A stretch of DNA of 64,000 nucleotides from positions 402,263 to 466,262 of the forward strand of contig JYNZ01000003.1 in NCBI GenBank assembly GCA_001567355.1, read 5' to 3'. The notes under the pieces were generated by a model. That model had not been told where the DNA came from. It ran no database searches and saw only the letters and a list, made by a program, of their open reading frames with translations. Within the stretch, counting starts at the first letter, position 1. Each line of letters begins with the position of its first letter. Shown here piece after piece: positions 3,799 through 60,933 of the stretch. The DNA comes from a candidate division WS6 bacterium OLB20 (GTDB lineage: Bacteria; Patescibacteriota; Dojkabacteria; B142; OLB20). The translations under genes were made by a program, and so were the position numbers.

Positions 3799-4047
3799 GC
3801 AAATGCCCTAAAGACTATTAACCGTATTGTACTCCCGGAAGAATGTAAACGTAACCCCTCTCAGCCTTGCCAGGAACATTTGTGTAAACAGCAATGATTT
3901 CAGAAACATCCTGCTACTGCTCTGCTGGATAAAAAAATTCAGGACTATTTAAAGGGAACTCAGCTACAATCTGATTAGGGGGAACGGGGCGACAGCCCCG
4001 GGGTTAAAGATGCACCTGCACCTCATTAAAACGCATTAAAGCCAAAG

Positions 4048-18578: not shown

Positions 18579-18618
18579 TTCTGCAAGCTGCTGTTTTACT
18601 CCTGTGTATTCGGCCTTT

Positions 18619-32837: not shown

Positions 32838-33618
32838 GGTTAAGTTTGAATAACTCCTCCTTTGAAAGTAATTTTAGTAATCCCCTGATCATATCTGCGA
32901 TCTGCTTCATCATTTTCTCAAGTGCTCTGGCTTCGTTCTGATTAAACGATGCGAGCGATTCCTTCCGTGCGATAGTGAGTGCCCCATACACAGTATTCTC
33001 ATCAGCAATCGGTAACGCAATAAAGGATTTAAGCCCGATTGTGCTTGCAATCAGTTTGCACTGCATCTTCGTAAGCGGTGGCGAAGCAAAATCTGAAAGT
33101 ACTTCACCAGTAAACATCCTGTTTTCATCAACACATTGTTTGGTATATGTATCAAGGTTATCCAGACTCTGTGGGTTGAACGACAATTGATCCAGAATGT
33201 ATTTAAAAGCAAAATCCACTGCCGGACCGGTCGAGAAGTATCGCAGGTGAAGTGCATTCAGATCCTGATCAAAATAGGAGAATGCTATACCTTTGTATCC
33301 AAGCTTGTTTTGAATCTCAGTCAACTTCTCTCCGAGAGCGTAATCCACGACTTTACCCGAAAGCATTGCCCGTATGCCCTGCAGTGAGTCTTCAAACTGT
33401 TCGATGGAGAGATCTATATCAAAGAGTCCGGCTGTTTCAACCGCGTCAAGCTTCAGTACATCTGCAATATTGAGAAGCGTCTCTTTGGTCGGGTTAACAA
33501 TACCGTTCTCAATCCGCGACAGACTCCCCGGCGACGCGCCAATCGCCATCTCAAGGTCAAGCTGGCTTACACCCGCACGTTTGCGGTAATCACGGATAAT
33601 GCTGCCCAGATCATGCAT
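32815..33618 (-). CDS. XRE-family HTH plus GAF-like regulator; tandem paralogue of the previous gene.
   Basis: The first ~30 codons are identical at the DNA level to the neighbouring paralogue (about 85-bp repeat at 32720-32805 and 33500-33585). The C-terminal sensor domain has diverged. Confidence 0.65.
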   Translation of the reverse strand: MHDLGSIIRDYRKRAGVSQLDLEMAIGASPGSLSRIENGIVNPTKETLLNIADVLKLDAVETAGLFDIDLSIEQFEDSLQGIRAMLSGKVVDYALGEKLTEIQNKLGYKGIAFSYFDQDLNALHLRYFSTGPAVDFAFKYILDQLSFNPQSLDNLDTYTKQCVDENRMFTGEVLSDFASPPLTKMQCKLIASTIGLKSFIALPIADENTVYGALTIARKESLASFNQNEARALEKMMKQIADMIRGLLKLLSKEELFKLNHERISRR

Positions 33619-33694: not shown

Positions 33695-34375
33695 TTATTC
33701 TGCTACAGTGTTAACCACCTTCTCAACACATGCTGATGTTCTACAGTCGCATCGTATTGTATAACACTGAGGTTGGCCGGGATCAGGGCGCGTTGCAGGA
33801 CAAACCTGATATTCCTCGATATCGTCCGACGCTCCTGGATTGGAGCAGTTATTAGTACAGACAAATCGATCGTTCTCATTGCACGCGAGTACCTGCCCTA
33901 CATAGGAACCACCTGTACAGACCTGCGGGAAGAAGAACGTAAATCCGGGATCACGAAGGTTTTCATAGCAGCTTGCATCCTCGGCAATCAGCCCTTGCAT
34001 CAATGTTGCTGATATCGGGTATGCAAGAAAGTACAGGAGCAGACCGATAACCCACTGCCCTGCACGCTTTTTAGCGATCTCAACCTTGCTCTGGTCGCCG
34101 GCACTTGTCAGGTAGATTCCACCGATTACAACCAGCAGCACCATAAAGACAATGCCTCCAAACGCCCAGGCGGCATATATTACCCGGGTGACAAGATACT
34201 GCAGTTCACGGATTGTGGGTGGTTCGCAGGGTTCACTGCTCTCGAGGGAGCACGGCTCAGAGACCTGAGCCGATGCCGGCTCTGCTGAGATGAACAACGG
34301 CAGCACAACAACTATCAGTACAAGCAGTACCGGGTATGCACGCTTAATAAGTGTTGCAAACCGTTGCACAGTCAT
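33695..34375 (-). CDS. Pilin-like protein 1: signal peptide, two-helix hydrophobic hairpin (TrbC/VirB2-like topology), Cys-rich C-terminal ectodomain (12 Cys).
   Basis: Signal peptide ends ASAQ. Hairpin VIYAAWAFGGIVFMVLLVVIGGIYL - TSAGDQSKVEIAKKRAG - QWVIGLLLYFLAYPISA. The Cys-rich tail follows. Confidence 0.55.
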   Translation of the reverse strand: MTVQRFATLIKRAYPVLLVLIVVVLPLFISAEPASAQVSEPCSLESSEPCEPPTIRELQYLVTRVIYAAWAFGGIVFMVLLVVIGGIYLTSAGDQSKVEIAKKRAGQWVIGLLLYFLAYPISATLMQGLIAEDASCYENLRDPGFTFFFPQVCTGGSYVGQVLACNENDRFVCTNNCSNPGASDDIEEYQVCPATRPDPGQPQCYTIRCDCRTSACVEKVVNTVAE

Positions 34376-34935
34376 CAGTTTGTGATAGGATCGATGCAGT
34401 CCGGTTCTGTGATGTCATCCGGATCAGTTGCAGCCTGGTACAGCGCCTCACATGAATTACACAGAGCCTGACTGTCATCCACTTCACCGGTGCACGATCT
34501 GCAGCCCTCACTGTTAGGCGCGGACAGACATACCTGGTAAAGTGCCGGATCCGGTCTGTTGGCTCCAAAGAAGACAAAGACAAGAACAATACCGACAATT
34601 GCAATAAGCATCGCACCAATACCAAAAAAGATCGCCTGGATGGCTTTTTGCGCCTCCTCTATCTTACCGGCATCTCCCTGAGACTGGATATACTTAATAG
34701 CAGCCATGATCGCATATACCACAGCGATCAGGACAACTGCTCCAAGAGCAAGCACAAGTCCAAGCTGAATACGGCTGGTAACAAAACCCGAAGCACCGAT
34801 ACCTTCTTCTCCAAGCAGACCAAAGATGTCGCCTATCTGATCAGGCAGAAGACTCTGCGCCTGAACTGGCAGTATCATAGCTGCTCCAAGCAGAATCGAC
34901 AGAGATAAAAACGCTCCCGTTATGTACTTTTTCAT
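34375..34935 (-). CDS. Pilin-like protein 2 (copy A of the tandem triplication).
   Basis: Signal peptide (..VQAQ). Core QLGLVLALGAVVLIAVVYAIMAAIKYIQSQGDAGKIEEAQKAIQAIFFGIGAMLIAIVGIVLVFVFF is identical to copies B and C. Distinct Cys-containing C-terminal tail. Confidence 0.6.
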   Translation of the reverse strand: MKKYITGAFLSLSILLGAAMILPVQAQSLLPDQIGDIFGLLGEEGIGASGFVTSRIQLGLVLALGAVVLIAVVYAIMAAIKYIQSQGDAGKIEEAQKAIQAIFFGIGAMLIAIVGIVLVFVFFGANRPDPALYQVCLSAPNSEGCRSCTGEVDDSQALCNSCEALYQAATDPDDITEPDCIDPITN

Positions 34936-34953
34936 GCGAGATAAAAATAATTA

Positions 34954-35559
34954 TTAATTTTCTGCACAGATGCCACCGGCATAGTTGCGCAACGCTGTTG
35001 TAAGCTGAGAATATGACCAGTTGTCCTGCACCTGTGTCTCAAAAAACTCCTCACACTGACCGCAGGCTGTATTTGTTCGTGCTCCGCGGGTACCTGGATC
35101 TTCTCCTGCAAGGCACGACTCACAGCCTTCACTGTCCGGGGACGTCAGGCACACCTGGTAAAGTGCCGGATCCGGTCTGTTGGCTCCAAAGAAGACAAAG
35201 ACAAGAACAATACCGACAATTGCAATAAGCATCGCACCAATACCAAAAAAGATCGCCTGGATGGCTTTTTGCGCCTCCTCTATCTTACCGGCATCTCCCT
35301 GAGACTGGATATACTTAATAGCAGCCATGATCGCATATACCACAGCGATCAGGACGACCGCCCCAAGAGCAAGGACAAGTCCAAGCTGGATACGGCTGGT
35401 AACAAAACCTGCCGAGCCCGAACCGCCGGGTCCAAGCAGGTTGAAGATATCAGCTATCTGACCGGGCAGCAAGCTCTGAGCCTGAACGGTAGTTACACCT
35501 GTCAGCAGGAGCAGCATTGTGGTGGACAGAAGCAGAAGTTGTTTCGTCCGTCTGATCAT
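34954..35559 (-). CDS. Pilin-like protein 3 (copy B).
   Basis: Same hairpin core. About 200 bp are DNA-identical to copy A (34535-34733 vs 35155-35353). The tail differs (...CESCLAGEDPGTRGARTNTACGQCEEFF...). Confidence 0.6.
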   Translation of the reverse strand: MIRRTKQLLLLSTTMLLLLTGVTTVQAQSLLPGQIADIFNLLGPGGSGSAGFVTSRIQLGLVLALGAVVLIAVVYAIMAAIKYIQSQGDAGKIEEAQKAIQAIFFGIGAMLIAIVGIVLVFVFFGANRPDPALYQVCLTSPDSEGCESCLAGEDPGTRGARTNTACGQCEEFFETQVQDNWSYSQLTTALRNYAGGICAEN

Positions 35560-35564
35560 CGTGT

Positions 35565-36170
35565 TTAAGGCTCGTCACACTCATCTGGAATAGTCGTCCC
35601 GCTTGCCTCTGAGTCACAGTTGCTGCCGTTTCTGGCAAGACAGTCGTATGCAGCCTCACACTGACCGCACAATGTATTGGAATATGTTCCATCCGCATCT
35701 GTTGCAGCATCATTATTTAGACATGATTCACAGCCGGCGCTGTTAGGCGCGGACAGACATACCTGGTATAGAGCTGGATCAGGTCTGTTGGCTCCAAAGA
35801 AGACAAAGACAAGAACAATACCGACAATTGCGATAAGCATCGCACCAATACCAAAAAAGATCGCCTGGATGGCTTTTTGCGCCTCCTCAATCTTACCGGC
35901 ATCACCCTGGGACTGGATATATTTAATGGCAGCCATGATCGCATATACAACAGCGATCAGGACAACTGCTCCAAGAGCAAGCACAAGTCCGAGCTGAACA
36001 CGGCTGGTGACAAAGTTTGCAGACCCGGAACCTTCCGGTCCGAGCAGATTGAAGATGTCTCCTATCTGATCAGGCAGAAGACTTTGTGCAGATACTGCTG
36101 CAGGCATTGTCACAAACAGCACCAGAAAGAAGCTGAGTGCGCTGAAAACAAGAAACGATCGTTTGTTCAT
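35565..36170 (-). CDS. Pilin-like protein 4 (copy C).
   Basis: Same core with a few synonymous or near-synonymous changes. Different tail (...CESCLNNDAATDADGTYSNTLCGQCEAAYDCLARNGSNCDSEASG...). Confidence 0.6.
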   Translation of the reverse strand: MNKRSFLVFSALSFFLVLFVTMPAAVSAQSLLPDQIGDIFNLLGPEGSGSANFVTSRVQLGLVLALGAVVLIAVVYAIMAAIKYIQSQGDAGKIEEAQKAIQAIFFGIGAMLIAIVGIVLVFVFFGANRPDPALYQVCLSAPNSAGCESCLNNDAATDADGTYSNTLCGQCEAAYDCLARNGSNCDSEASGTTIPDECDEP

Positions 36171-36234
36171 GGCGTATGTAAAAAATGTTTAAACTCAGTC
36201 TAGTCTATTTGGCAGCTAATGTTAAGGTTTGCGC

Positions 36235-36789
36235 TTAAAGAAAAGTGTAGCTTAGGTTTTCGCAGCGGTCCTCAAATCTGAAAAACTCATTGAGCGGAAC
36301 ATCACTGACATCCAGATGGTCCCACTCCTGATCAGAACCCAGTCCGCCAGTTCTGCAGCACGCTATGGCATACTCTCTGCGCTCATCATCTGCGATCTCA
36401 GGTTGCATCTCCAGCTCAATGTAACGGAACTTGAACTCCGAATCAGCCCCTCCGCACTGTGCAAGATTGCTGCTCCATGAATAGATATCCCCCACTCCGG
36501 TAAACACTCCAATCAGCGACAGTACAATCAGAAACCCGAGAAACATGGCGATCCCGATCCAGATATTCTTGATCACTGTCATTCCACCCTGGATACCGTC
36601 CGGATTACCGGCGCTGGTGATAATTTTGATTCCTGCGTAGATGCTGAAGACAACCCAGACAACAAGCATCACCGAAAACAGAAGCGAGATAAACAGAGCG
36701 ATCACTGACAGGACGCCTCCGTTAAGCAGCCCCCCGACATTAGGGAGAAATAACGAGATACCGCCAATATCAACCTGACCAGTCAGCAT
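36235..36789 (-). CDS. Pilin-like protein 5. Hairpin core diverged. C-terminal Cys-containing acidic domain.
   Basis: 184 aa. Hairpin LSVIALFISLLFSVMLVVWVVFSIYAGIKIITSAGNPDGIQGGMTVIKNIWIGIAMFLGFLIVLSLIGVF. No clear cleavable signal peptide. Confidence 0.5.
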   Translation of the reverse strand: MLTGQVDIGGISLFLPNVGGLLNGGVLSVIALFISLLFSVMLVVWVVFSIYAGIKIITSAGNPDGIQGGMTVIKNIWIGIAMFLGFLIVLSLIGVFTGVGDIYSWSSNLAQCGGADSEFKFRYIELEMQPEIADDERREYAIACCRTGGLGSDQEWDHLDVSDVPLNEFFRFEDRCENLSYTFL

Positions 36790-36805
36790 AGTCGTTTTTT
36801 AAAAG

Positions 36806-37525
36806 TTAATCCCTGTATGGCTCCCAGCTGCCACCGCGGCAGATGTAATTACGAACCCCATCTACAGACGGGTCAGCATCGACATAACCGAATGATCCGT
36901 CGCCGCATGCCTCAGTCAGCTCTGCAGAAGTCAGTTCGAGCGGTACAAGATTAAAGTCAAACAGGTTCTGTGCCACGCCGAGCAGCATGGCGATTATCTG
37001 GATGATGAGTATCCCCATGGTTGAAACAACAACACCGATGATCGCGTTCTGGAATATTTTTGCAGATTCCTCCACCTTGTCCGGACTCTCACCCGCGGTT
37101 GTCCGCACCACCATACCGTATATCCCCATCACGATTGCGGCAACCGATATCACACCCATGACTGCGTAGAGGAACATCCTTATCAGACTCGGTATCGCAC
37201 GCTCAGGCGGACCGAAGTTGATACCGGCAAAATTGACATTGTCTTCAACCTCCGCAATTGCCTGCTCAACCTCTTTGCACTTGGAAGGATCTTCTTTTTC
37301 ACACCCCTCACCTGCCTCGATACATTTATACTGACACAGCAGACTGCACTCAGCCTGAGGATCAGTAAAGAGAAGCGCGGAACAGTTAGGATCGACAACC
37401 AGATCAGTGGGCTCGTTTGCGCTGTTGACATCAGTCGGCCTGTCAATAATTGTGCAGCCCACAGCAAACAGCAGCAGTGCTGCAGCAATACCAATTAGTT
37501 TGAAGTTAACCTTCATATCAGCCAC
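36806..37525 (-). CDS. Pilin-like lipoprotein 6: Cys-rich N-terminal domain, hairpin, then a C-terminal domain.
   Basis: Lipobox LLLFAVGC. Cys-rich block CSALLFTDPQAECSLLCQYKCIEAGEGCEKEDPSKC. Hairpin MFLYAVMGVISVAAIVMGIYGMVV...ESAKIFQNAIIGVVVSTMGILIIQIIAML. Confidence 0.5.
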   Translation of the reverse strand: MADMKVNFKLIGIAAALLLFAVGCTIIDRPTDVNSANEPTDLVVDPNCSALLFTDPQAECSLLCQYKCIEAGEGCEKEDPSKCKEVEQAIAEVEDNVNFAGINFGPPERAIPSLIRMFLYAVMGVISVAAIVMGIYGMVVRTTAGESPDKVEESAKIFQNAIIGVVVSTMGILIIQIIAMLLGVAQNLFDFNLVPLELTSAELTEACGDGSFGYVDADPSVDGVRNYICRGGSWEPYRD

Positions 37526-37898
37526 CGATCAGCTGCACACCAAACAGTGCGGAAATAATACCGACAACAACAGGTGCAACAAGAATGATAATAAATCCGA
37601 TTACGGCGAACGTGAGGATCTTTTTTGCCTGCGCCACTTTTTCGTCAGACCCGGCGGCAGTAAGGTATGTAAAACCGCCGTAGATAATCATTGCCAGAAA
37701 CGCAAGTGTCGCCACGGGTATGATAAATGCGCTCAGTGTCGAGAAAATTGACCCGATATCGCTGAACAGCGAGTTTAGCGGGTTCTGAATCGTATTCGGT
37801 CCGTCTGTAGCAGGTGTCGGAGAGGCCGCATTAACAGCACTTACACCAGCAGCAGCAAACAGTAAGATAGCGGCAAGAATGTTTGTGAGTACTTTCAT
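37518..37898 (-). CDS. Pilin-like protein 7 (minimal form). Start taken at MKVLTNIL; the ORF is open to 38024.
   Basis: Signal peptide MKVLTNILAAILLFAAAGVSAVNAA. Hairpin FIIPVATLAFLAMIIYGGFTYLTAAGSDEKVAQAKKILTFAVIGFIIILVAPVVVGII. No ectodomain. Confidence 0.5.
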   Translation of the reverse strand: MKVLTNILAAILLFAAAGVSAVNAASPTPATDGPNTIQNPLNSLFSDIGSIFSTLSAFIIPVATLAFLAMIIYGGFTYLTAAGSDEKVAQAKKILTFAVIGFIIILVAPVVVGIISALFGVQLIGG

Positions 37899-37941
37899 AC
37901 TACCTAGAGTAGCAGACAGAAACGGTGGCAGCAATACTCTG

Positions 37942-39135
37942 CTATTGCAGGAAGTCCAACGGCAGAATGCCGAGAACATTAATACCCAGAAACCGCAGGA
38001 TGACAACAGCGCCAAGTAGTACAATCAGGGCAATAATTGCTGAACTGACAATCTCTTTTGCCTCACGGATCTGCTCGGGATTATCAGTTTGCATCATAAT
38101 GGCTGCCTGGATAAAGCGCAGGATCATGACACCGCCGATTATACCGATACCGATTTGAAACAGCCTGGTTACTATCCCGTTGAGTGATACATCCCAGCAG
38201 CCAAGAGCGTTCCACACAAAGAAACCCTCATCCGCCTCATCGAGATTGCGGGCCACACAGGCGCGACACTGTGTACGCTCCTCCGCATTTTCTTCCGGAA
38301 TATTATCACACCCTTTACTCAACTCACCGGCATCAGGATCTATCGGAGCCGACGCATCTACCAGATTGCCATCTACGCATCTTCTCGTTGCATCGTTCGG
38401 GTCAAGCTCATTGTTGTTGATACAGTAGGCTCCGTTTGCCTCACACGCTGATTCTGATTCAAACGTCTCGGCGGGGTTCATGCGGTCACCATTGAGTACT
38501 CGGCAGTTTCCTCCGCCACCGCACCACCAGAGGGTTTCTGTTTCAATTAAATGGTTTGACCCTTCAAGCCCCCAGATGCTGCTGAGGTCACGATCCTGCT
38601 CTGCGGGTACTGAACTGTTATCTGGACGATAACACTTTCCATCACTATCACTGACGATGCTGTCGTTCGGATCCGGACAGCACAAAAGATCATACGTCAG
38701 GTGAATACCCTGGGGCTGAAGAATGAGATTCGGATGAGACTCGGGACAACACCTGGCTGCACCTCCATACGCCAGGAGCCCGGATGGACTCTTGTCAGCT
38801 ACATATCCATCAAAACATACGTTAAATACCCAGCCGCCCGCATGACTCCAGACCGAATTTACTTCTGTGATATTGCTCAATGCGCAGTGTCTGTTGCCTT
38901 CCACAATGATATTCCGTTCTTCAGAGGAGTTTAAATCATCTGCAAAAAGGTTATTCTCAAGAAAATAATCACCCAGAGGACCAAGCGTTGATGACGGACA
39001 CATGTTCTCGTCACTCACACAACCTGCAGCCAGCGCCTGTGATGATGTAAGGACTGCGACAACGAACACGACTGAAGATACGATAAGGAGCTTCAACGCA
39101 ATCCCTTGAAGGGAGAGTTTATGACCTGACAACAT
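37942..39135 (-). CDS. Pilin-like protein 8: large Cys-rich extracellular domain (~300 aa, ~30 Cys) fused to a C-terminal hairpin module.
   Basis: Signal peptide ..SSQALAAG. Many CxxC/CC pairs. C-terminal LFQIGIGIIGGVMILRFIQAAIMMQTDNPEQIREAKEIVSSAIIALIVLLGAVVILRFL. The ORF is open to 39171, overlapping the 3' end of the Clp-like gene. Confidence 0.55.
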   Translation of the reverse strand: MLSGHKLSLQGIALKLLIVSSVVFVVAVLTSSQALAAGCVSDENMCPSSTLGPLGDYFLENNLFADDLNSSEERNIIVEGNRHCALSNITEVNSVWSHAGGWVFNVCFDGYVADKSPSGLLAYGGAARCCPESHPNLILQPQGIHLTYDLLCCPDPNDSIVSDSDGKCYRPDNSSVPAEQDRDLSSIWGLEGSNHLIETETLWWCGGGGNCRVLNGDRMNPAETFESESACEANGAYCINNNELDPNDATRRCVDGNLVDASAPIDPDAGELSKGCDNIPEENAEERTQCRACVARNLDEADEGFFVWNALGCWDVSLNGIVTRLFQIGIGIIGGVMILRFIQAAIMMQTDNPEQIREAKEIVSSAIIALIVLLGAVVILRFLGINVLGILPLDFLQ

Positions 39136-41449
39136 CAATTTTCTCCAGCGAAGTAATATGCAGTCTGTCACCGTAATCCAGATTGCCGGCGACGATCAGT
39201 TTAGCGATCTTGTTTTCGACCTCGTCCTGAATCACACGTCGAAGTTCGCGAGCGCCGTAGACCGGGTTGTAACCTTTTCGGGCAAGTTCTTCGAGCAGCT
39301 GCGGCGTGTAGGTCAGAGTTATACCTTTCTCTTCCAGTGTTTTAGCCTGCTTCTGCATCATTATCTCAGCGACTTTTTGCACCTCAAGCGGTACAAGCGG
39401 TCTGAATAGAATCACTTTATCAAATCTGTTGAGGAATTCAACGCGCAGGTACTTTGCCAGGATCGGCTGCACCTGTTTTCTGATCTGCTCGTATGGTGTT
39501 CCCCTGGTGGTCAGTTCTGATATCTCGCGGGTACCAACGTTTGAGGTGGCAATAATTATGGTATTGGTAAAATCAACCTTTCTGCCCAGGCCGTCGGTCA
39601 TGCTTCCCTCGTCCAGCACCTGCAGAAACAGGTCCAGTACGCGGGGATTAGCCTTCTCGATCTCGTCAAGCAGCAGGAGCGAGTACGGACGGTTGCGCAC
39701 AGCCTCGGTCAGATAGCCTCCTTCAAACCGGCCGTCGACAGACTTGCCGATCAGGCGGTCAAGATTTGTCTCCTCCTGATACTCAGACATATCGAGCCGG
39801 ATCATCAGTTTTTCGTCTCCGTAGTAAACCGCGGTCAGTGCCTTTGAAAGCTCTGTTTTACCGACACCGGTAGGACCAAAAAACAGAAACGTGGCGATCG
39901 GACGCTTGCCGCTGACAAGTCCAGCCCTGGATCTGCGCATTGCATCAGCAACAGCCTGGACTGCCTCTGTCTGACCGATCAGCCGCTGGTGCAGTTTTTC
40001 CTCCAGATTAACAAGCAGCTCGGACTCGCGGCTGTCGATCGCACCAACTTTGACACCCACCTTGGCAGAGATCACCTCTTCAATCAGCTGCTCGTTAGCA
40101 AACTCAAGTCCTCTACTGCGAGCACTGACCATAACCTCTTCGAGCAGATCGATTCCTTTGTCGGGCAGCACTTTTTCAAAGGCAAACGTATGCGAGAGTT
40201 TTACCAGCCGCACAAGCGCATCAAAACTGACACGAACACCGTAGCGCAGCTCCATCGCGGGCAGCACATCCATCAGAATCTGAACTGCTACAGGGTCTGA
40301 TGGCTCTTTAACCTCAACCAGTTTAAATGATGATGCCAGACCACGTTCTGTCTTGATCTTCTGGTTGTAGCCTTCGGGAGTTGAGACGGCAATCACGCGC
40401 AGATGATAACGGTCCATTGCGCTGACGATAAGATTGACGACTTCGGATGCGATCTCTCTGCGGATGTTAAGCACCTGGTCAAAATCATCAAGGACCAGAA
40501 TGATATTGCCTGCCGACGCTGTCTCCTCAAGTACATTCTGTACACGGGACTTGAACACCTCAACGGTCGGCGCCAGTGAAAACGCCCGGTTAAAATCAAA
40601 TGCCACAAGACGCTTGTCACGAAGTATCGGTGGAACGTCCTCTACCACCATGCGTGTCGCGAGACTGTTCACAAGCGTTGTACGGCCGACTCCGGGCTGA
40701 CCCACTAGCAGTACAGCGCTGGCATCACCCTCCTCAAGATAACTGATCACCTGGTTCAGCTCACCCTCGCGTGCAATCGAGTATGTAAAGTCACCCTTAA
40801 CTGTTTCGGCAGTGAAATCGCGCTGAAACTGAACGAGCACCGGTGAGTATCGTGATGTAAACGCCCTGTTGACTGTAGAAACGGGCTTCAGTGCACGTTT
40901 GGCGTAGAACTCGTCCTTATAGCGTCTGATATCACTTTTATTTTTAAGCCACATACCAAGCGCCTCAACCTCATCCGGCAGAACATTTACACTCTTAAGC
41001 TCCTGCGCAAGGGGCTTCTGCATCAGAAAGAGGAAAAACGCCATCTCATCCACACTGTTAAGGCGCAGATCGTATGACAGCTGAAACGTACTGATCAGCA
41101 CCTGAACAAGCCATGAGTCGATGTGAGTATCGCTTGCCAGGTTGTGCTTTGCCGCCAGTTCAAGCAGCGACCGCTTTTCGAGGCCAAGACGGGCAGCCGC
41201 TTTCTGCACATTGGCATAGCGCAGCACCTCGTGTATCAGCAGTGTCAGAAAGTCCTGCTCACCTGTCCCGGCCAGATCATCAAGAACATTAAGCAGATCA
41301 TGATCTATATACTCCGTTATTTCGATCTCTTCGGGAAGATTACCCTGATTGATCTGTTCTCTAAGTCCCGAAAGCTTTTTCAGTCGCAGAGTATCGACAA
41401 ACAGTGCACGGTTGCGTCTGAGAAACATTGCATACAGATACAGCAGCAC
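39119..41449 (-). CDS. ClpC/ClpB-family Hsp100 AAA+ ATPase with two nucleotide-binding domains and a non-canonical ~230-aa N-terminal region.
   Basis: D1 LLVGQPGVGRTTLVNSLA with IILVLDDFD. D2 FLFFGPTGVGKTELSKAL, LLLLDEIEKANPRVLDLFLQVLDEGSMTD, sensor-2 GARELRRVI. The N-terminus lacks recognisable Clp_N repeats. The annotated start is GTG, immediately after the C6 run at 41451-41456. Confidence 0.85.
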   Translation of the reverse strand: MLLYLYAMFLRRNRALFVDTLRLKKLSGLREQINQGNLPEEIEITEYIDHDLLNVLDDLAGTGEQDFLTLLIHEVLRYANVQKAAARLGLEKRSLLELAAKHNLASDTHIDSWLVQVLISTFQLSYDLRLNSVDEMAFFLFLMQKPLAQELKSVNVLPDEVEALGMWLKNKSDIRRYKDEFYAKRALKPVSTVNRAFTSRYSPVLVQFQRDFTAETVKGDFTYSIAREGELNQVISYLEEGDASAVLLVGQPGVGRTTLVNSLATRMVVEDVPPILRDKRLVAFDFNRAFSLAPTVEVFKSRVQNVLEETASAGNIILVLDDFDQVLNIRREIASEVVNLIVSAMDRYHLRVIAVSTPEGYNQKIKTERGLASSFKLVEVKEPSDPVAVQILMDVLPAMELRYGVRVSFDALVRLVKLSHTFAFEKVLPDKGIDLLEEVMVSARSRGLEFANEQLIEEVISAKVGVKVGAIDSRESELLVNLEEKLHQRLIGQTEAVQAVADAMRRSRAGLVSGKRPIATFLFFGPTGVGKTELSKALTAVYYGDEKLMIRLDMSEYQEETNLDRLIGKSVDGRFEGGYLTEAVRNRPYSLLLLDEIEKANPRVLDLFLQVLDEGSMTDGLGRKVDFTNTIIIATSNVGTREISELTTRGTPYEQIRKQVQPILAKYLRVEFLNRFDKVILFRPLVPLEVQKVAEIMMQKQAKTLEEKGITLTYTPQLLEELARKGYNPVYGARELRRVIQDEVENKIAKLIVAGNLDYGDRLHITSLEKIDVVRS

Positions 41450-41706
41450 TCCCCCCAGAAAACCGCATCAGCAATTCGATCCGGATTGAGCACCTCAAAC
41501 GGCAGAAACCTCCCCTGAAGAAAATCGTACGCCAGCAGCGATCCCAGGGTCAGCAGAAGAACCGCCATCAACAGACGTGACAGTGCTTTCTCCGCTGTTT
41601 CTGTCTCACGTCTGAGGCCATGCTCCTTAAACAGATAGTCCCAGTTCAGGGTTAGCGGCACCCCCTTAAACATTCCTACTGTTTCCTTGCCCTTACGTAA
41701 TCGCAT
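41380..41706 (-). CDS. Small ORF. It may be the 5' extension of the Clp-like gene (a TM-containing N-terminus) if one G is missing from the G6 run; otherwise a small membrane protein.
   Basis: 108 aa with TM LLMAVLLLTLGSLLAY. Inserting one G into the G6 run fuses it in frame to the Clp ORF (AVFWGGVLLYLYAMFLRRNR...). Confidence 0.3.
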   Translation of the reverse strand: MRLRKGKETVGMFKGVPLTLNWDYLFKEHGLRRETETAEKALSRLLMAVLLLTLGSLLAYDFLQGRFLPFEVLNPDRIADAVFWGECCCICMQCFSDATVHCLSILCD

Positions 41707-42025
41707 TTGACAGATAGCGTAACAGCTGAAAAACAGGGATTAGCGGCAGAACAAGGTACATAAGAAAGAGTAATAGCAAGGGGACGGTAACAAACAGCTG
41801 CATGATGCTTCCGACTGTGATCCATATCAGGCGGATCGGAAAGCTGATCGCGTAGCCTATTGCTGAGTAGTCCTGATACAGCGGTACAAAGAGGTTACGC
41901 GCCATCGGCACGACATTAAAGTAGCCTAGCGTGAAGCTCCACATGTTGATCAGATTGCGTGCCACCTGACCGGCCTCAATCACGTACCACCAGAGCCAGA
42001 AATTTATGAAATACTTCTTCATCAA
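41693..42025 (-). CDS. Small polytopic membrane protein, hypothetical.
   Basis: 110 aa, 3 predicted TM helices. Head of the minus-strand run that continues into the Clp-like gene and pilin-like cassette. The convergent GT-C gene starts 40 nt away. Confidence 0.4.
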   Translation of the reverse strand: MMKKYFINFWLWWYVIEAGQVARNLINMWSFTLGYFNVVPMARNLFVPLYQDYSAIGYAISFPIRLIWITVGSIMQLFVTVPLLLLFLMYLVLPLIPVFQLLRYLSNAIT

Positions 42026-42064: not shown

Positions 42065-43834
42065 GTGGCAGTCATGCATATTCATGGGTACAGTGGTATA
42101 ATCAGCTGCCAAGTAAAACGCGCCATGAAGAACCTGAAACGCAACCTGCACAAGTATGCAACCGAGATTTATTTTCTTGCGCTGTCGCTGATCATCTTTG
42201 TTCCCCTGCTTCGGCCCGGGTACGTTCTTACGCTGGATCTGATCTTTACACCCCGGATGCATTACCAGTACACCAATTCGCACGGTCTCTACAGCGAGAC
42301 TGCTCGTGATGCCGTTCTTAATCTGCTTGCGAGGATCGTCGATGCCAGTGTGATAGAAAAGCTTCTTCTGATGCTGCTGTTTTTCTGTATCGGTTACTTT
42401 ATGTACCGGTTTCTGCTGCAGCTGCGCAAACGCAACCGCAGTTATGCGATTGTTGCCGCAACGCTGTATATGTGGAATCCGTTCACTTACTCGCGTCTTC
42501 TTGCCGGTCACTGGGCATTTTTATGCGGCTACGCGCTGCTGCCTGTCTTTATGTGGGGACTGCATCACTTCTACCGCCAGAAAAAAATCTCCAACAGACT
42601 GCTGATCGCCTGCTCGGTATCATGGTTTGTGGCAAGCCTTGTCAGTGTTCATTTTCTGCTGCTGTTTGCAGTACCGTTTGCTGTATATACAGTACTGCAC
42701 ATGTTCACCTATGTGCGCTGGGACCGGACTGCAGCCCGTGCCGTAGCTCTGCTGGCATTTATCACGCTGTTTTCACTCAGCTGGATTGTACCCTCGCTTC
42801 TGATAAGCGATGTATCACGCCTGGGTCCGCTGCATCTGATCTTTTTCGCTCCCACTCCCGACCTTCAGTACGGTCTTACCTTTAATCTGCTCAGCATGTA
42901 CGGTTTCTGGGCCGAGAGCACCATCGGCACCATGCCAAAGGAGCTGATCACCGTCTGGCCCCTTCTGACACTGGTTCTGTTAATCATTGTTGCGGCTCCG
43001 CTGATCCGTGCAGGCGGTGATCTGCTTGCCATCAAGAAAAACAAATCCTACAGCAGGACACAGCGTCTGCTGATCGGATCCCTGTTTATCACCGGACTGC
43101 TTGGACTCGTTCTTGCGCATGGCTCTACAGGGTTTATGCAGCCTGTCTGGGATTACCTCTACAATACCGTTCCGGTTCTGCAGCCGTTCCGTGAAGTACA
43201 GAAGTTTCTGCTGCTGTACGTGTTTGCAGCAACCGTTCTGTTCTATTATGGCCTTGACGCTGTTGCCGACCTGATCAGGGAGGGGGTACGTTCTGTCCGG
43301 TCGCGCTTTACAATTGATGCAGAACGGATCACCGCCTTTTCGGGTCTGATACTCGTAATCCTGATTACACCATTGCTTGGTTTTGCCGCTGCAGGGCAAC
43401 TGCAGACAACACAGTATCCCCGGTCCTGGTACCAGCTTGAGGAGGAGCTTACAGAGCGCGCGACCGAGGGGCGTATTCTGGTACTGCCGTGGCGCGCCTA
43501 TGCCGAGTTTCCGTTCAGCAGCAGACAGATTGCTGACCCGTCACGGTCATTTTTCAGCGGTTATGTAATCAGTGAACGTGTTCCGGCCTATCTGCGCTCA
43601 ACCATCGAATGCGAAATTGAATTTACAGAAATTCACCGCAACGAAGTGATCCGCCTCTGCCTCGGCAGTGACTCTGACAAGCAGGACTGGATCAGCCAGG
43701 TCAAACTTAACAGCATCGATTATGTCGTCTTCAACAAAGTTCAGGCCTTCAAGGTTAATGACTTCTTTAATGATGAGGAACACTTTCAACTCATCTATTC
43801 GGATAACTATGCGGATATCTACCGGGTGTTATAA
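42065..43834 (+). CDS. Polytopic integral membrane protein, GT-C-type glycosyltransferase-like (YfhO/PMT-like topology). The true start is probably the Met at 42125.
   Basis: At least 11 TM helices. First extracytoplasmic loop has acidic residues (TLDLIF...SETARDAV). Blocks TLDLI, LYMWNPFTYSRLLAGHWAFLCGYALLPVFMWGL align to the N-terminal domain of the 49001..52660 paralogue. Confidence 0.55.
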   Translation: MAVMHIHGYSGIISCQVKRAMKNLKRNLHKYATEIYFLALSLIIFVPLLRPGYVLTLDLIFTPRMHYQYTNSHGLYSETARDAVLNLLARIVDASVIEKLLLMLLFFCIGYFMYRFLLQLRKRNRSYAIVAATLYMWNPFTYSRLLAGHWAFLCGYALLPVFMWGLHHFYRQKKISNRLLIACSVSWFVASLVSVHFLLLFAVPFAVYTVLHMFTYVRWDRTAARAVALLAFITLFSLSWIVPSLLISDVSRLGPLHLIFFAPTPDLQYGLTFNLLSMYGFWAESTIGTMPKELITVWPLLTLVLLIIVAAPLIRAGGDLLAIKKNKSYSRTQRLLIGSLFITGLLGLVLAHGSTGFMQPVWDYLYNTVPVLQPFREVQKFLLLYVFAATVLFYYGLDAVADLIREGVRSVRSRFTIDAERITAFSGLILVILITPLLGFAAAGQLQTTQYPRSWYQLEEELTERATEGRILVLPWRAYAEFPFSSRQIADPSRSFFSGYVISERVPAYLRSTIECEIEFTEIHRNEVIRLCLGSDSDKQDWISQVKLNSIDYVVFNKVQAFKVNDFFNDEEHFQLIYSDNYADIYRVL

Positions 43835-43853
43835 TTGCTGAAACACTGGAGCC

Positions 43854-44132
43854 GTGAGCGAACAACTTGCGACATACCATATCGGCAGACTTCTTGCGCA
43901 GGAGGCGTTTTCAGAACGCAACTCCACATATCCGGGTACGATCATGGCAATTACACCACTTGAGGTAAGCGCCAGAAAGCTTGCCGGAGAAGCCTCCGAG
44001 TGGGGAGTCAGTCTTGAGCACTACAGCGGATTTATCCCTTACATTGATGTAGAGTTCCGGGTCGCTGCAGCATACTATCTTGCAATTATGTTGCGGGACA
44101 GATACGGGGACACTTCTCCGCACTCATTCTGA
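43854..44132 (+). CDS. Small hypothetical protein (92 aa).
   Basis: ORF only. It fills the gap between the GT-C-like gene and the TP-rich protein gene on the same strand. Confidence 0.3.
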   Translation: MSEQLATYHIGRLLAQEAFSERNSTYPGTIMAITPLEVSARKLAGEASEWGVSLEHYSGFIPYIDVEFRVAAAYYLAIMLRDRYGDTSPHSF

Positions 44133-44232
44133 TACATATCTGTAACATATCTTAATCTTGACCGTAATGCCAGCTATAGGATATAATTCTGACGTTTCAC
44201 TGCCTCGAAACTAACTTTTCAGTAGAACCACT

Positions 44233-46116
44233 GTGAGTGATCTTGACCCAATTCGACGTGACGATGAAGATCTGTTCCGTAGCGATGCAGGTACCGGCGA
44301 CATGTTTGACGAACTGAGACCCACTGAGGGACTTACACCCGAAGAACGCGCGCGCCGCAACCGCATGATCCTTGCAGGCGTTTTGATCATGGCAGCAGCA
44401 ACGATCGTAATTATCGCAGGCATTCTGTATCTGCAGTACGAGGACGGCAGACTGGAACGTATCGGAGAAGCCGGCACCCAGACTGCTGTATATAATGCGA
44501 CAGGAACACAGCACCAGATCTTTATTCGAGATGAAACTGCGACTGCGGAGGCATTTGTCCTGCCGACCAATACTCCAACACCATCTGATACACCGACACC
44601 AACGCTGACTCCAACACCTACACTGACGCCTTCACTGACTCCGACAAGCACACATACACCTACGATAACACCATCGCCCACCTGGACACCCGACATGATC
44701 GGTACCGGCACTGCTGAGGCATACGCAGCTGCCACTGCTACAGAGATCTATAATGACAGTGTCGACTTCGGTCGCAACCTGATCTTCGAGCCTGACAGCC
44801 GGACATGGTTTTCTATCGAGACCGGCTTTATCAATCCTCCCCTGCCCGAAAACCCGACACCGGATCAGATACAGAGATGGATGGACTTTGAAGCCCAGCA
44901 GGCAGAGGTTGTAAGAGCATATGCATATGCACGGTACACAGGCGAAACGTTTGACTCAACTCAGCTTGACAGTGTTATAGCTGCACAGCGGGCATTGTTT
45001 GCAGATTACGGACTTGATCTGTCAGTTGTTGCCGAAACTGCCGCCGCAAGCACTATCGGAGATGGTGATGACGGTAATGATGTACCTGACGGCAATGCGT
45101 TTCTGTACGGCCAGCTTGCTGGTGAATTTGAGTCACTTGTTGAACAGCTGCAGGGCAACGATGGTGATTATGGCAATAACGACGGACGTGCAAACGGTCT
45201 GACACAGCGTACAATGAGACTTCTGACCTTACGCGCAGGAGCACTGGGATCCATGGCCTCCGGTGAAACAGGTATGGATGCGACAATACTTGCTGTAGTA
45301 AACGCGATCCCTGATGTTGACGGATCACCGGCAGCACCGCTAACAGATTTTGATGTTACCGTCTCTGTTGTACCATCGGATCTGATTGCTGGTGGACGCG
45401 GAATAGTAAACCCTGACTTTATTGTCTGGGATTCTGACGTTGACCCTGATTACAGCGGTGGCACTGCTGTACCGGAGACACCGGCGGTGGTCAGAACCGG
45501 AGCGATTTTCTCTCTGCCTCCGGGTCCGGAGGGCACTTTTATGCTGCTTGCCCCCAATGGGGATGTTGACCGGATCGGTGCAACTGCATGTGAGGTAACA
45601 ACCGGTATCAGAACAGGAGACACATTCTCTGATGACGATGGCACTGTGTGCGTTACAGCAGGCCCGGTACTTGGTGTCACTATTTACATGGCTGGTGAGA
45701 CTGATTATGACGAGACAACAATTTACGGCCAGCGGACTGCATTCAGACCGGTGAGCCCGCAAGGGGTACCGGCTGCTACAGCCACATCCGAGGTCCCAGG
45801 CGCACAGCCGACCGACGGTGCCGGCGAGGAGACACCGGTGATCATTCCAACAAGCCAAGGGACACCTGATATAACGTTAATACCACCGACGTTGCAGCCG
45901 ACTCAGCCGGGAGTAACATTTGTTCCTCCTACATCACAACCGACACCTGACAATCCACCTGTGATTCCGACATCACAACCGACACCGGATAGTCCACCTG
46001 CGATTCCGACAGCCCAAAACACACCTGTCGAGCAGCAGGTCATACCGACAGCGCAGAATACACAAGTACCGCAATTTGAGATCCCGACAGCCCAGCCAAC
46101 GCAGGACGGGAACTAA
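44233..46116 (+). CDS. Membrane-anchored surface protein with Thr/Pro-rich linkers.
   Basis: Cytoplasmic N-terminus, one TM (MILAGVLIMAAATIVIIAGILYL). Repeat tract TPTPSDTPTPTLTPTPTLTPSLTPTSTHTPTITPSPTWTP. C-terminal PT/Q-rich repeats IPTSQPTPD..IPTAQNT... Confidence 0.6.
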   Translation: MSDLDPIRRDDEDLFRSDAGTGDMFDELRPTEGLTPEERARRNRMILAGVLIMAAATIVIIAGILYLQYEDGRLERIGEAGTQTAVYNATGTQHQIFIRDETATAEAFVLPTNTPTPSDTPTPTLTPTPTLTPSLTPTSTHTPTITPSPTWTPDMIGTGTAEAYAAATATEIYNDSVDFGRNLIFEPDSRTWFSIETGFINPPLPENPTPDQIQRWMDFEAQQAEVVRAYAYARYTGETFDSTQLDSVIAAQRALFADYGLDLSVVAETAAASTIGDGDDGNDVPDGNAFLYGQLAGEFESLVEQLQGNDGDYGNNDGRANGLTQRTMRLLTLRAGALGSMASGETGMDATILAVVNAIPDVDGSPAAPLTDFDVTVSVVPSDLIAGGRGIVNPDFIVWDSDVDPDYSGGTAVPETPAVVRTGAIFSLPPGPEGTFMLLAPNGDVDRIGATACEVTTGIRTGDTFSDDDGTVCVTAGPVLGVTIYMAGETDYDETTIYGQRTAFRPVSPQGVPAATATSEVPGAQPTDGAGEETPVIIPTSQGTPDITLIPPTLQPTQPGVTFVPPTSQPTPDNPPVIPTSQPTPDSPPAIPTAQNTPVEQQVIPTAQNTQVPQFEIPTAQPTQDGN

Positions 46117-46134
46117 TTATTTATTTATTAATTT

Positions 46135-48954
46135 GTGAGTAACAGCATGAGAAAACTCAAAGCACTGGTAACCGGAGTTCTCCTCACCACGCTGGCCTTC
46201 AGTATGCTGCCTGTGCAGTCAGCACGAGCAGACTTTACAGAATGTGCCATCGGCACTGTTTGTGTGTTCAAGGACGTGTTCAATGATGCCCAGGCAGCAT
46301 GGAACAACAACACAACAAATGGCGTACCCGGTGAATACCATGAGTTCAATATCGGTGTCTGGAATACAACAGCAGGCACCATTAATAATGTCACATTCAG
46401 GGACACCCTTCCTGCAGGACTGACCTTTACAACAGGGTCAATCCAGTTTGCCGGATGGAGCGGTTCCTACAATGAGGCCGACCTTTTCAACGGCACAGGA
46501 ATCAATGTGGGATCTCTGACCAGCGGTCAGTCAGTACAGCTGGCAATCAGAGTTTCCATTGATCCGCTTCCTGCCGGTGTTCACAACCTGACAAACTCGG
46601 CAACAGTAAGCTGGACAGGCGGCAGCAAGAGCAATTCTGCACAGATTGTTGTCACATCCACAGGTCTGCCTGCAGAAGAAGGCGACCTGCTGATCAACGA
46701 GATCAACCACAATCCCCAGGCTGACTGGAGTGGCGGCTCAAGCTACGCTCTCAGCAACCGCACAGCAATCGACGCTGATGACGAGTGGATTGAGGTATAT
46801 GTCACAGAGGCAGGCCTTGACCTGACAGACAGCAACTGGACACTAACCATCGCCAACAATGGCGGTGCATCAAGCACTACACAGCTGCTTGCAACAGGCA
46901 CAGGCTATGAATACTTCGGATCAGGATCAGTCAGCAACACAGCCGCAGGTGCATACCTGCTGATCAATAACCCACTGCTTGACCTGAACGATACAGCAAG
47001 CATCGGCATCGACTTTGACAGCAGCGCCATCGACAGCATGAGCTACAGCGGCACACCGTCAGGTCTTCTGGACGAGACTGTCGGCCGCAATGCATCAAGC
47101 ACCGATACTGGCAGCAACAGCGACTTTTCACGCAATCATGCCACACCAGGCATGGTTAACGATGTTCGCAGCGCAACCCGCTATGAGGCAGAGATCTATA
47201 TGGCATCCGGAGCAGGTAACGAGCATGGTGAGGATGAGCGGATTGCGGCAGCAAGCCGCGGACTCGCAGTAAAACTGGATTCCAGCGTGGACCTTGCCGG
47301 TGACACGTTCAGTGTTATCAGCAATGCGCACCAGAGCGCCGGAGCATACCGCGCAGACCTGCGCATCCGCACCAATGATGCCATCCTTAACGACTTTGAC
47401 AGCAAATTTGCTGACTTTGTGGTCGCCTATCCTAACGGCAGCGGCGGATACAAAGAGACAGGATTCGCAATCGTCGGACGCGACTTCAGCAGCAATGGAA
47501 CATTCCAGACACTTTCAATCGAGTTTGTTAAACCTGCGACAAGCGGAAACAACATCTACCAGATGAACTTCTTCCCTGCTGCAGGCGTTAACGTAGTTGT
47601 TGACTACATCGAAGTAACACAGATCAGCCCGAGCAATGCTCTACCCCAGGTTTTCCAGGCAGAAGATATGCACAAGAAGGCAGGCAGCGTGTTTAACGAT
47701 GGCGGAACAACAGTAGTTCTCGGCAATGCGTCCGAGATCAGCGGTATTCCGGTACATGTAGCATACGGACCGTACACCGCTAAATTCCACACCGGTCTTA
47801 ACAGTCAACAGCTTGAGGCATCATTCCGCCTTAAGTTTGCCAACGTAACCGGTACAGGCAACGATGTCATCGCCCGTATCGAAGTGACAAACCCGACCCA
47901 GGGTCTCAACCGTGAGACATTCCTGAGGGCAAGCGATGTAAGCGGCAGCTATGCCGACTACAAACTGCAGTTTCCGACTGCATCGGAAGGATCATTCCAG
48001 TTCCGTGTGATGAACTTCGGCAATGCAGACATCTTTTTTGACAGTGTGACTGTCAACAGTCTGAGCGGTCTGCCTGTATGGGTATACGAGACCGAGAACG
48101 ACTTTGACCTTACAAACAACGGTGTTATCCAGGATAACGCCGCAGCCTCCGGCGGACAGGAAGTTGTAACGACTGTTGCCGCTAACGATCCGGGTCACAT
48201 CCAGATGGGACCGTTTACACTGGACCAGACCGGTACAGGAGAGTTTTACAAGGCGACCTACCGTGTCCGCACAACCGGTACACCGTCATCATCTGATATT
48301 GCAGCGCTGATGATCGTGCGCGAATTTGATACAGCACGCATCATCGCCAACGGATATATCTATGCCAATACTCTCAACAGCGACTATCGCGAGTTTGAGG
48401 TCATCTTCCAGTCATTCAGCTCAGGACGCAATACTTACGAGCTGTACTTCAATGATGTCGTTGATGTTATCTCAGACAGCGTTACTGTCGAGCAGCTGGC
48501 AGCAAATCCTGACCCGCGTGAGATCCAGGCAGAATCACTTTACCGTGAAGGCCTGAACGGTGATATTACTGAAGACGCACTGGCAACCAACGCAATCGGG
48601 CATACAACCGGTCTTGCAGTGATTGCACAGGACGGCGTTGATGACGGTAAAATCATCGTCTACTCCAACAGCCAGGAGATGTTTGCAGCCGGCAACTACG
48701 AAGCTGCATTCAGCCTGCGCAAGACAGGTCCGGGCAGCTCATCTGCTCCGGTCATGTACGTTGAGGTGTTTACACCGTTCAACCAGATCGGCTATGTGGA
48801 GGTAAGCGAAGCGGACCTGAGTACAGGCGGCTACACAGACATTGTTGTACCGTTTAACCTGGGCAGCAGCGAGCGAATCTACTATAAGATCTACTTTGTG
48901 GGCGGTACCGGGAACAACATCCTGGTGGACAAAATCACGCTGGATAAGGTATAA
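46135..48954 (+). CDS. Secreted large surface protein with a DUF11-like N-terminal domain and a lamin-tail domain (LTD), followed by beta-rich repeats.
   Basis: Signal peptide ..LPVQSARA. LTD-like block DLLINEINHNPQADWSGGSSYALSNRTAIDADDEWIEVYVTEAG. 939 aa. Confidence 0.6.
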   Translation: MSNSMRKLKALVTGVLLTTLAFSMLPVQSARADFTECAIGTVCVFKDVFNDAQAAWNNNTTNGVPGEYHEFNIGVWNTTAGTINNVTFRDTLPAGLTFTTGSIQFAGWSGSYNEADLFNGTGINVGSLTSGQSVQLAIRVSIDPLPAGVHNLTNSATVSWTGGSKSNSAQIVVTSTGLPAEEGDLLINEINHNPQADWSGGSSYALSNRTAIDADDEWIEVYVTEAGLDLTDSNWTLTIANNGGASSTTQLLATGTGYEYFGSGSVSNTAAGAYLLINNPLLDLNDTASIGIDFDSSAIDSMSYSGTPSGLLDETVGRNASSTDTGSNSDFSRNHATPGMVNDVRSATRYEAEIYMASGAGNEHGEDERIAAASRGLAVKLDSSVDLAGDTFSVISNAHQSAGAYRADLRIRTNDAILNDFDSKFADFVVAYPNGSGGYKETGFAIVGRDFSSNGTFQTLSIEFVKPATSGNNIYQMNFFPAAGVNVVVDYIEVTQISPSNALPQVFQAEDMHKKAGSVFNDGGTTVVLGNASEISGIPVHVAYGPYTAKFHTGLNSQQLEASFRLKFANVTGTGNDVIARIEVTNPTQGLNRETFLRASDVSGSYADYKLQFPTASEGSFQFRVMNFGNADIFFDSVTVNSLSGLPVWVYETENDFDLTNNGVIQDNAAASGGQEVVTTVAANDPGHIQMGPFTLDQTGTGEFYKATYRVRTTGTPSSSDIAALMIVREFDTARIIANGYIYANTLNSDYREFEVIFQSFSSGRNTYELYFNDVVDVISDSVTVEQLAANPDPREIQAESLYREGLNGDITEDALATNAIGHTTGLAVIAQDGVDDGKIIVYSNSQEMFAAGNYEAAFSLRKTGPGSSSAPVMYVEVFTPFNQIGYVEVSEADLSTGGYTDIVVPFNLGSSERIYYKIYFVGGTGNNILVDKITLDKV

Positions 48955-49000
48955 TAGACCTATAGTCTGAGTTCTCAGACATAATTATAGGACTTGTACC

Positions 49001-56889: not shown

Positions 56890-56919
56890 GAGTTGTGATT
56901 AAAGAGTTCCCGGTTTAGC

Positions 56920-57740: not shown

Positions 57741-59387
<1,647 letters not shown>

Positions 59388-60904: not shown

Positions 60905-60933
60905 TGTGACTGACGGGAAGAACAGATACGAGA

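Follow-up and report, generated by a model that had tools for sequence, protein, structure and literature searches.

A predicted membrane-anchored Clp ATPase, read across a one-base frame break, and its pilin-like gene neighbours in a Dojkabacterium

Are a Clp-type AAA+ gene and the small open reading frame (ORF) in front of it, as found in the genome of the candidate division WS6 bacterium OLB20, two genes or one, and what would the protein do among the pilin-like genes that follow it? We analysed a stretch of 64,000 nucleotides (nt) of contig JYNZ01000003.1, hereafter the window, and count all positions from its first letter. Direct reading of the sequence gives a Clp ORF at 39119..41449 on the minus strand, with 776 amino acids (aa) and a GTG start at 41449-41447, and an upstream ORF at 41380..41706 on the same strand, with 108 aa and an ATG start, which crosses a run of six G (G6) in a different frame. 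The run lies at 41451-41456 (minus strand), immediately 5' of the GTG with only A41450 in between, and the frame break was placed there from sequence, alignment, tblastn and Logan assemblies. A sequence-only reading had noted this start, had seen that one added G joins the two ORFs, and had proposed that the Clp protein is anchored in the membrane through the upstream one; its coordinates and frame arithmetic were correct when we read the sequence again. Judged by sequence comparison, 39119-41706 on the minus strand is one gene for a predicted 862-aa membrane-anchored class-I Hsp100/Clp ATPase, below called TM-Clp (for its transmembrane, TM, helices), which belongs to a lineage-restricted family in Candidatus Dojkabacteria, a member of the Candidate Phyla Radiation (CPR, the Patescibacteria). 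We find it fairly probable that the whole reading holds jointly, that is a single gene, the architecture described below, a break caused by a consensus error, and an unfoldase at the membrane that is driven by its second AAA+ ring (D2) and has VirB2-like hairpin proteins as its preferred clients.

With one G added, the frames are joined as ...D-A-V-F-W-G-G / VLLYLYAMFLRRNR into a product of 862 aa, in which V-L-L-Y-L-Y-A-M-F-L-R-R-N-R is the sequence downstream of the junction; seven G (G7) at the run would thus restore W84-G85-G86-V87, colinear with the orthologues. With the 776-aa ORF as query, the search recovered the product of the window itself (called as 769 aa) together with about 50 relatives that are 40-66% identical. 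The relatives are nearly all single proteins of 845-881 aa, the named ones all from Candidatus Dojkabacteria, and their public names do not go beyond 'AAA family ATPase' or 'ClpC'. A word-indexed search for homologues of the fused N-terminal 328 aa gave no matches, whereas the whole ORF as query succeeded. Our family alignment holds 48 sequences, the product with the added G and 47 orthologues, and it is free of gaps across the junction, where the consensus is FWxxxxxxYxxYLxRDR. The first 86 residues, which the small ORF encodes, match the N-termini of the orthologues, including an invariant Gly30 and a DWDYL motif, and a homologous N-terminal tail with the first TM helix is present in 47 of the 47, all of them single proteins, which supports the proposed anchoring. 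Nothing in the orthologues corresponds to the final 22 residues of the 108-aa ORF (ECCCICMQCF...). Alignment of the orthologue ORFs by tblastn put their residues 2-86 in frame -2, at window positions 41706-41458, and their residues 87-858 in frame -1, at 41452-39137. The frame break thus falls precisely on the G run, and the joining of the two frames is no coincidence.

Among 1.84 billion representative proteins, a phmmer search detected only 39 relatives of residues 87-310. Those that are full-length (809-868 aa) match from their own residue 75-125, mostly 83-95, and since the match begins so far in, all of them must carry an N-terminal extension. The outcome that the sequence-only reading had named as a refutation, orthologues that begin at an internal Met and lack a TM region together with an unconserved upstream ORF, was thus not observed. 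Both halves of the gene are well conserved and have no lesion besides the break at the G run, and after the one-base repair the window shows every feature of the Dojkabacteria family: the N-terminal tail, the TM hairpin, the N-domain, the linker, the first AAA+ ring (D1), D2 and the flanking genes.

The 5' segment of the gene (aa 1-85; 41452..41706, minus strand), as delimited by translation, orthologue residues 2-86, hydropathy and charge distribution, would encode a basic cytoplasmic N-tail, the first helix (TM1), a short outer loop and the first half of the second helix (TM2). TM1, at about aa 41-63 (nt 41518-41586), is strong in Kyte-Doolittle windows in all 48 sequences, and TM2, at about aa 78-96, is above the hydropathy threshold in some 30 of the 47 orthologues. 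The coding sequence of TM2 (41420..41475, minus strand) spans the frameshift and is followed by a conserved RRNR/RDR cluster; it was placed by hydropathy, charges and the helices of an AlphaFold2 (AF2) model of P0002, an orthologue with 66% identity, which lie at 32-64 and 78-96. The N-tail has nine Lys and Arg against six Asp and Glu, the loop between the helices two of each kind, and the 24 residues after TM2 seven against two. From this charge distribution and the positive-inside rule we infer that both the N- and the C-terminus are inside, with the ATPase in the cytoplasm. The TM helix that had been predicted in the upstream ORF is there as a hydrophobic helix, but the fused 862-aa product has by hydropathy a hairpin of two helices, the second of which is cut by the frameshift.

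A divergent Clp_N-like domain appears to follow the hairpin, a conclusion drawn from structural and transitive evidence and not from a direct family match. This all-helical N-domain (about aa 125-270) and the subsequent linker with the invariant motif LKPxSTVNRAYTS were placed at 40898..41335 (minus strand) by AF2, Foldseek and hhalign. The AF2 model of window residues 87-310, made from 50 aligned sequences, is all-helical with a predicted local distance difference test score (pLDDT) of 88.4, and its top 34 Foldseek matches in the PDB are all N-domains of Hsp104, PfHsp101, ClpC1, ClpC or ClpA, with probabilities of 0.51-1.0, target TM-scores of 0.12-0.64 and E-values of only 0.2-2. Pfam Clp_N has no match in the window protein and is not among the families listed for the 48 members (E <= 0.1). 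There is however a distant sister family in the CPR (e.g. the Falkowbacteria 'AAA family ATPase', P0052-P0062) with a TM hairpin, Clp_N, a degenerate D1 and a D2, and hhalign aligns our domain to the N region of this family with 98.75% probability (E = 1.5e-16); Pfam calls Clp_N in its member P0062 (36 bits, residues 178-225). Against canonical ClpB N-domains hhalign gave 3%, which is not significant. It had been claimed that Clp_N repeats are lacking, and this is true for Pfam Clp_N, but the AF2 model retrieves only Clp N-domains and the sister family is linked by profile.

The remainder of the protein is formed by the two AAA+ rings, D1 with its lid (AAA aa 332-439, AAA_lid_9 473-533) at 40088..40810 and D2 (AAA_2 aa 602-764) with ClpB_D2-small (775-851) at 39155..39985, both on the minus strand and both placed by Pfam and a motif census, D1 also by structure alignments. 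The AAA_2 match has an E-value of 1.7e-51, and the tandem of AAA, AAA_2 and D2-small is that of a class-I Hsp100/Clp protein. The model of a full-length orthologue (pLDDT 83.8) matches the D1-D2 part of ClpC, ClpC1 and ClpB with target TM-scores of 0.80-0.86; the NCBIfam scores are far below the equivalog cut-offs for ClpB (483 vs 1232 bits), ClpA (401 vs 993) and ClpV (390 vs 885). In the D1 of the window, Walker A is GVGRTT, with Arg replacing Lys as also in the closest relative, and Walker B is LVLDDFD. The catalytic Glu of the D1 Walker B is absent in 43 of the 48 family members, which have DD, ED or DN instead, and none of the 48 has a KYRG-type pore loop or the pore-loop Tyr. D1 is degenerate and probably does not hydrolyse ATP, and its role is probably structural or that of a ring which binds nucleotide. 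In D2 the Walker A (GPTGVGKTE) and Walker B (LLDE) motifs are invariant across the alignment, the pore loop is two residues shorter with F-x-G-G in place of GYVG, and D2 looks like the motor.

The M-domain (ClpB residues ~404-502) has no counterpart in TM-Clp, and the AF2 model contains no long coiled coil. The spacing from Walker A1 to Walker A2 is 275 aa, and ClpA can be aligned in one stretch (query 220-765 vs ClpA 184-733), whereas the alignments with ClpB and ClpC are split around the M-domain. Opposite the ClpP-docking loop of S. aureus ClpC ('FAGFGG') the query has a gap, and an IGF/IGL/AGF-type tripeptide is found in this segment in none of the 48. The description of the modules as canonical ClpB/ClpC therefore stands for D2, with its intact Walker motifs and ClpB/ClpC as its closest match, but not for the degenerate D1, the missing M-domain or the D2 pore loop without GYVG.

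TM-Clp is not at the head of the operon, as the sequence-only reading had it. An independent gene call and the homologues upstream of TM-Clp elsewhere reveal a gene for a small membrane protein of 109 aa (41693..42022, minus strand) as the true first gene, and its stop overlaps the ATG of TM-Clp by 14 nt. The protein has a conserved motif (WWY...LPMA.NL.PLYQD...FPIR) and no match in Pfam or NCBIfam, and the relatives that were found are hypothetical Dojkabacteria proteins only; by position, homologues of the gene are directly upstream of TM-Clp in all related loci as well as in the wider CPR sister family. At the other end, sequence and an independent gene call agree that the stop of TM-Clp (39119-39121) overlaps the first pilin-like gene (39119..39135, minus strand), as had been claimed, by 17 nt with the independently called ATG at 39135 and by 53 nt for the longest ORF, with a GTG at 39171. 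The two genes overlap or nearly abut in the related loci L004-L007 as well, which is consistent with translational coupling. The order of small protein, TM-Clp and pil1-pil8 is collinear in 15 loci, with relatives at 40-66% identity; a locus search with a narrower alignment gave nine Dojkabacteria loci, the window's own genome not being among them. Within the operon, scans for promoters and terminators gave no higher numbers of sites than shuffled sequence did, and speak neither for nor against a single transcript.

The array that follows consists of eight co-directional VirB2-like genes (33695..39135, minus strand), which resemble pilin genes of type IV secretion systems (T4SS) and were assigned by PF18895, NCBIfam, sequence features and synteny. 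All eight proteins have a two-helix hairpin and seven have an N-terminal segment like a signal peptide; the product of the fourth gene (36235-36789) has the hairpin only. Most of them have Cys-rich ecto-domains. PF18895 (T4SS_pilin) matches four of the eight, the gene at 37518-38024 with 39.1 bits against a cut-off of 26.6 and the other three just under it with 24.8-25.9 bits, and the NCBIfam pilin-like model NF045849 reaches 35.5 against a cut-off of 40. Three tandem paralogues at 34375-36170 (minus strand) have a nearly identical hairpin core (about residues 28-140) and differ in their signal-peptide regions and Cys-rich C-terminal tails, which on sequence looks like a cassette-style variation of an exposed tip. 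Tandem arrays of two to 11 divergent VirB2-like genes have been described in Patescibacteria, and the array is essential in one Saccharibacterium, Ca. Southlakia epibionticum (10.1101/2025.01.22.634366; PMC10633639). In a term search of these two papers no Clp or AAA+ partner turned up.

Taken together, TM-Clp is likely a D2-driven unfoldase at the membrane, acting on VirB2-like proteins or on membrane proteins generally. We hypothesize that it would form a hexamer on the inner, cytoplasmic face of the membrane, in which D2 would pull on the cytoplasmically exposed parts of membrane proteins, aided by the small membrane partner and the N-domain. It would be a stand-alone unfoldase, not a partner of ClpP since there is no docking loop, and not a disaggregase coupled to DnaK since the M-domain is absent. 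Its preferred clients in Dojkabacteria would be the VirB2-like hairpin proteins that are co-expressed with it, the most likely ones because the operon is conserved and translationally coupled; they may be extracted, sorted or cleared while a T4SS-type surface structure is assembled. In classical systems ATPases have to pull VirB2 out of the membrane before a pilus can be assembled (PMC9259494).

Some points weigh against this reading. The TM prediction comes from hydropathy and AF2 helices only. The link to the pilin-like genes is lineage-specific and the function of the core may be more general: in the sister family (loci L008 7649-10739 and L009 1581-4720, recognised by domain matches and gene neighbours) the homologous small membrane protein is directly upstream and a Glycos_transf_4 gene comes next, with no pilin-like genes, and since this family keeps the pair without pilins, the core of small protein and TM-Clp must be older than the pilin link. 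In 12 of the 15 loci groES-groEL is directly upstream of the operon, which fits general proteostasis equally well. A pulling motor in the cytoplasm also extracts its clients inwards, and that is the wrong direction for the growth of a pilus.

An explanation with the same architecture is therefore that TM-Clp serves general quality control of membrane proteins, as an FtsH-like extractor without a protease, and that the adjacency to the pilin-like genes is accidental in Dojkabacteria. We regard this as quite possible, although somewhat short of an even chance. Besides the pair kept without adjacent pilins and the groES-groEL genes, it is favoured by a feature of most members of the sister family, an additional DnaJ-type zinc ribbon at the N-terminus, since this motif binds unfolded proteins. 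Two points speak against it: the ordered linkage to the pilin-like genes, which in the lineage of the window has survived an insertion of about 15 kb that separates groEL from the intact operon, and a Clp stop that overlaps or abuts the first pilin-like gene in most loci. The most specific version of our own reading is that TM-Clp and its small partner are a dedicated membrane Hsp100 machine, which would recognise the eight VirB2-like proteins by their loops or tails on the cytoplasmic side and would extract, sort or recycle these proteins. We put this forward tentatively, and equally so the analogy that it would entail, in which the machine would be for the pilin-like filaments of the CPR what ClpV is for the sheath of the type VI secretion system (T6SS).

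The frame break itself is most likely mundane. We consider it quite likely that the one-base deficit inside TM2, G6 for G7, is an error in the consensus, and this is the likeliest explanation because no fewer than three further conserved genes of the 64 kb have likewise been broken by homopolymer indels of a single base. In all, four conserved genes out of about 60 genes are broken, each by a 1-nt homopolymer indel and none by any other type of lesion; a long-read assembly with consensus errors shows this pattern, gene decay does not. All three of the others are on the minus strand. The SbcC-like gene (17811-19920) is split into 433 and 255 aa at A7 18654-18660 by comparison with an intact orthologue of 687 aa in locus L004, which reads KLLKDF where the window reads ELLKK, then a frame change and then F. 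The trans-polyprenyl synthase gene (26736-27810) is in two frames, broken at A5 27651-27655 relative to an intact 356-aa orthologue in locus L002; LRKAK / RLRAALMYY at the break matches the orthologue, and the frame is lost after about 50 codons. The third is a membrane-protein gene (59852-61824) split into 296 and 350 aa at A5 60978-60982, which is a single ORF of 619-731 aa in four relatives (L004-L007).

The contrary view is that the frameshift is real, so that the gene is a very recent pseudogene, a split gene, or carries an on/off switch at the G tract; the strain would then be without a full-length membrane-anchored Clp, or have it only in cells that have slipped to G7. The Logan assemblies of the runs SRR29904086 and SRR29904083 both give G6, as in the window, and the frameshifted 108-aa product is also called in the second run, SRR29904083. 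Over 15.5 and 9.1 kb, contigs from SRR29904086 match the window with 100% identity, G6 included, which suggests accurate reads, and they reproduce the SbcC split as well; should the two runs consist of accurate short reads, the frameshifts would be real. Homopolymers are furthermore natural hot spots for indels. We nevertheless think that a real frameshift is unlikely: systematic homopolymer errors would return in all runs of the same chemistry, the four broken genes, with exclusively this kind of lesion, point to consensus error, and the two Clp halves are otherwise intact and conserved. Six G is also short for a contingency locus, and by visual reading there is no Shine-Dalgarno-like sequence before the internal GTG or ATG; a convincing independent start is lacking. 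An exact 22-mer beside the G run identified no other copy of the strain among JGI metagenome contigs, and a look-up of the neighbouring cyclase-like gene, aimed at the polyprenyl-synthase frameshift, returned no Logan record.

It is very improbable that the break is bridged by recoding, either by a -1 ribosomal slip on G GGG G, where tRNA-Gly would re-pair on GGG, or by an RNA polymerase that adds a G. A -1 slip on the run would yield the same amino acids as G7 (...FWGGVLL...), and the genome may tolerate multiple homopolymer frameshifts; that all four are real and tolerated through slippage is a more remote idea. At the homologous site a G run is missing from the orthologues, so that no recoding signal is conserved, and the fold of the 109 nt downstream is not better than that of shuffled sequence (z = 0.87). 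In the zero frame the run does not form a canonical X XXY YYZ heptamer, and six G are few for transcriptional slippage. Programmed frameshifting was rejected as the main explanation, the site being unconserved and without a downstream structure. Least credible of all is that the annotation is right as it stands, with a soluble Clp of 769-776 aa from the internal GTG or ATG and an unrelated 108-aa ORF, for although gene callers output exactly such a pair, the first 85-86 residues of the 108-aa ORF are homologous to every orthologue N-terminus, the 776-aa ORF would open midway in a conserved TM helix, and no full-length relative begins at that position.

Some genes around the operon can be mentioned. 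The island of about 15 kb (42065-57579) between groEL (57741-59363) and the operon contains genes for GT-C/Wzy-like, DUF11, GT2 and GT4 proteins and a flippase. The split membrane-protein gene of 646 aa comes after an FtsA/PilM-like gene, and its counterparts in L004-L007 have no family assignment. Directly after the pilin-like array, at 30149-33618, there are two tandem helix-turn-helix (HTH)-GAF regulator genes and a GAF histidine-kinase gene, and in locus L002, too, the array is followed by one gene of each kind, HTH-GAF and GAF kinase; these are possible regulators of the operon. A VirD4/TraD-like ATPase of 855 aa (8984-11551, minus strand; T4SS-DNA_transf, TraG-D_C and DUF87) adjoins SmpB about 22 kb from the array, and in L007 the equivalent region is only about 9 kb downstream, in the same orientation. 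The window also has a tRNA-Ile gene with a UAU anticodon (5729-5801, plus strand), which is uncommon in bacteria, with two CAU tRNA genes nearby (1785-1860, 4047-4119).

For annotation the lesson is that at least four genes in a 64-kb window are split at homopolymers, and that the '769-aa ClpC' and the '108-aa hypothetical protein' of the public gene calls are likely artefacts. For the biology, an Hsp100 with a TM hairpin, a dead D1, no M-domain and no ClpP loop would widen the membrane roles of this family of motors. In a cultivated Patescibacterium, VirB2-like arrays belong to the few gene sets whose essentiality has been demonstrated (PMC10633639). A strictly conserved operon with such an array, an unfoldase and a small membrane protein is a concrete candidate for a step in the assembly of the array products.

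TM-Clp resembles ClpC, ClpB and ClpA in having two AAA+ rings, D2-small and a putative Clp_N-type fold; its D2 is 45-49% identical to that of ClpB, and the spacing from D1 to D2 matches ClpA. In contrast to all three it has a TM hairpin, a D1 without the catalytic Glu and the pore-loop Tyr, and F-x-GG in the D2 pore loop, and it has neither the M-domain of ClpB and ClpC nor the ClpP-docking loop of ClpA and ClpC. To our knowledge every class-I Hsp100 protein (ClpA, B, C, E, L, V or Hsp104) is soluble, and TM-Clp would, if it is membrane-integral, be the first membrane-integral one that we know of; literature searches for a membrane-anchored Clp in the CPR found nothing relevant. Like ClpV/TssH, it would be an Hsp100 that serves the structural components of an apparatus for secretion or at the cell surface, is encoded together with them and does not partner ClpP. 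ClpV is however soluble with active rings and an N-domain that recognises the sheath, TM-Clp scores 390 against the TIGR03345 cut-off of 885, and there are no T6SS genes among the annotated neighbours of TM-Clp.

FtsH and Msp1/ATAD1 are hexameric AAA+ motors with an N-terminal TM anchor that extract membrane proteins from the cytoplasmic side. Such a membrane-held motor pulling out membrane proteins has been described for FtsH (PMC7949044), and TM-Clp would likewise be held at the membrane through N-terminal TM helices. The former have a single classical AAA ring, in FtsH together with an M41 protease, whereas TM-Clp has two Clp-type rings and no peptidase domain in Pfam. The comparison with VirB4/VirB11, inner-membrane ATPases that act on membrane-stored two-helix pilins before assembly (PMC9259494), concerns the task and not the ancestry; the ATPase families are unrelated, and a Clp in the VirB2 dislocation step would be a role that we only infer. 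The CPR sister family differs from TM-Clp in that Pfam Clp_N can be called only there, while TM-Clp is the one followed by pilin-like genes. Like the published VirB2-like arrays of the CPR, the TM-Clp operon holds tandem VirB2-like genes, but here these are orthologues in a fixed order, and the small membrane protein and TM-Clp precede them.

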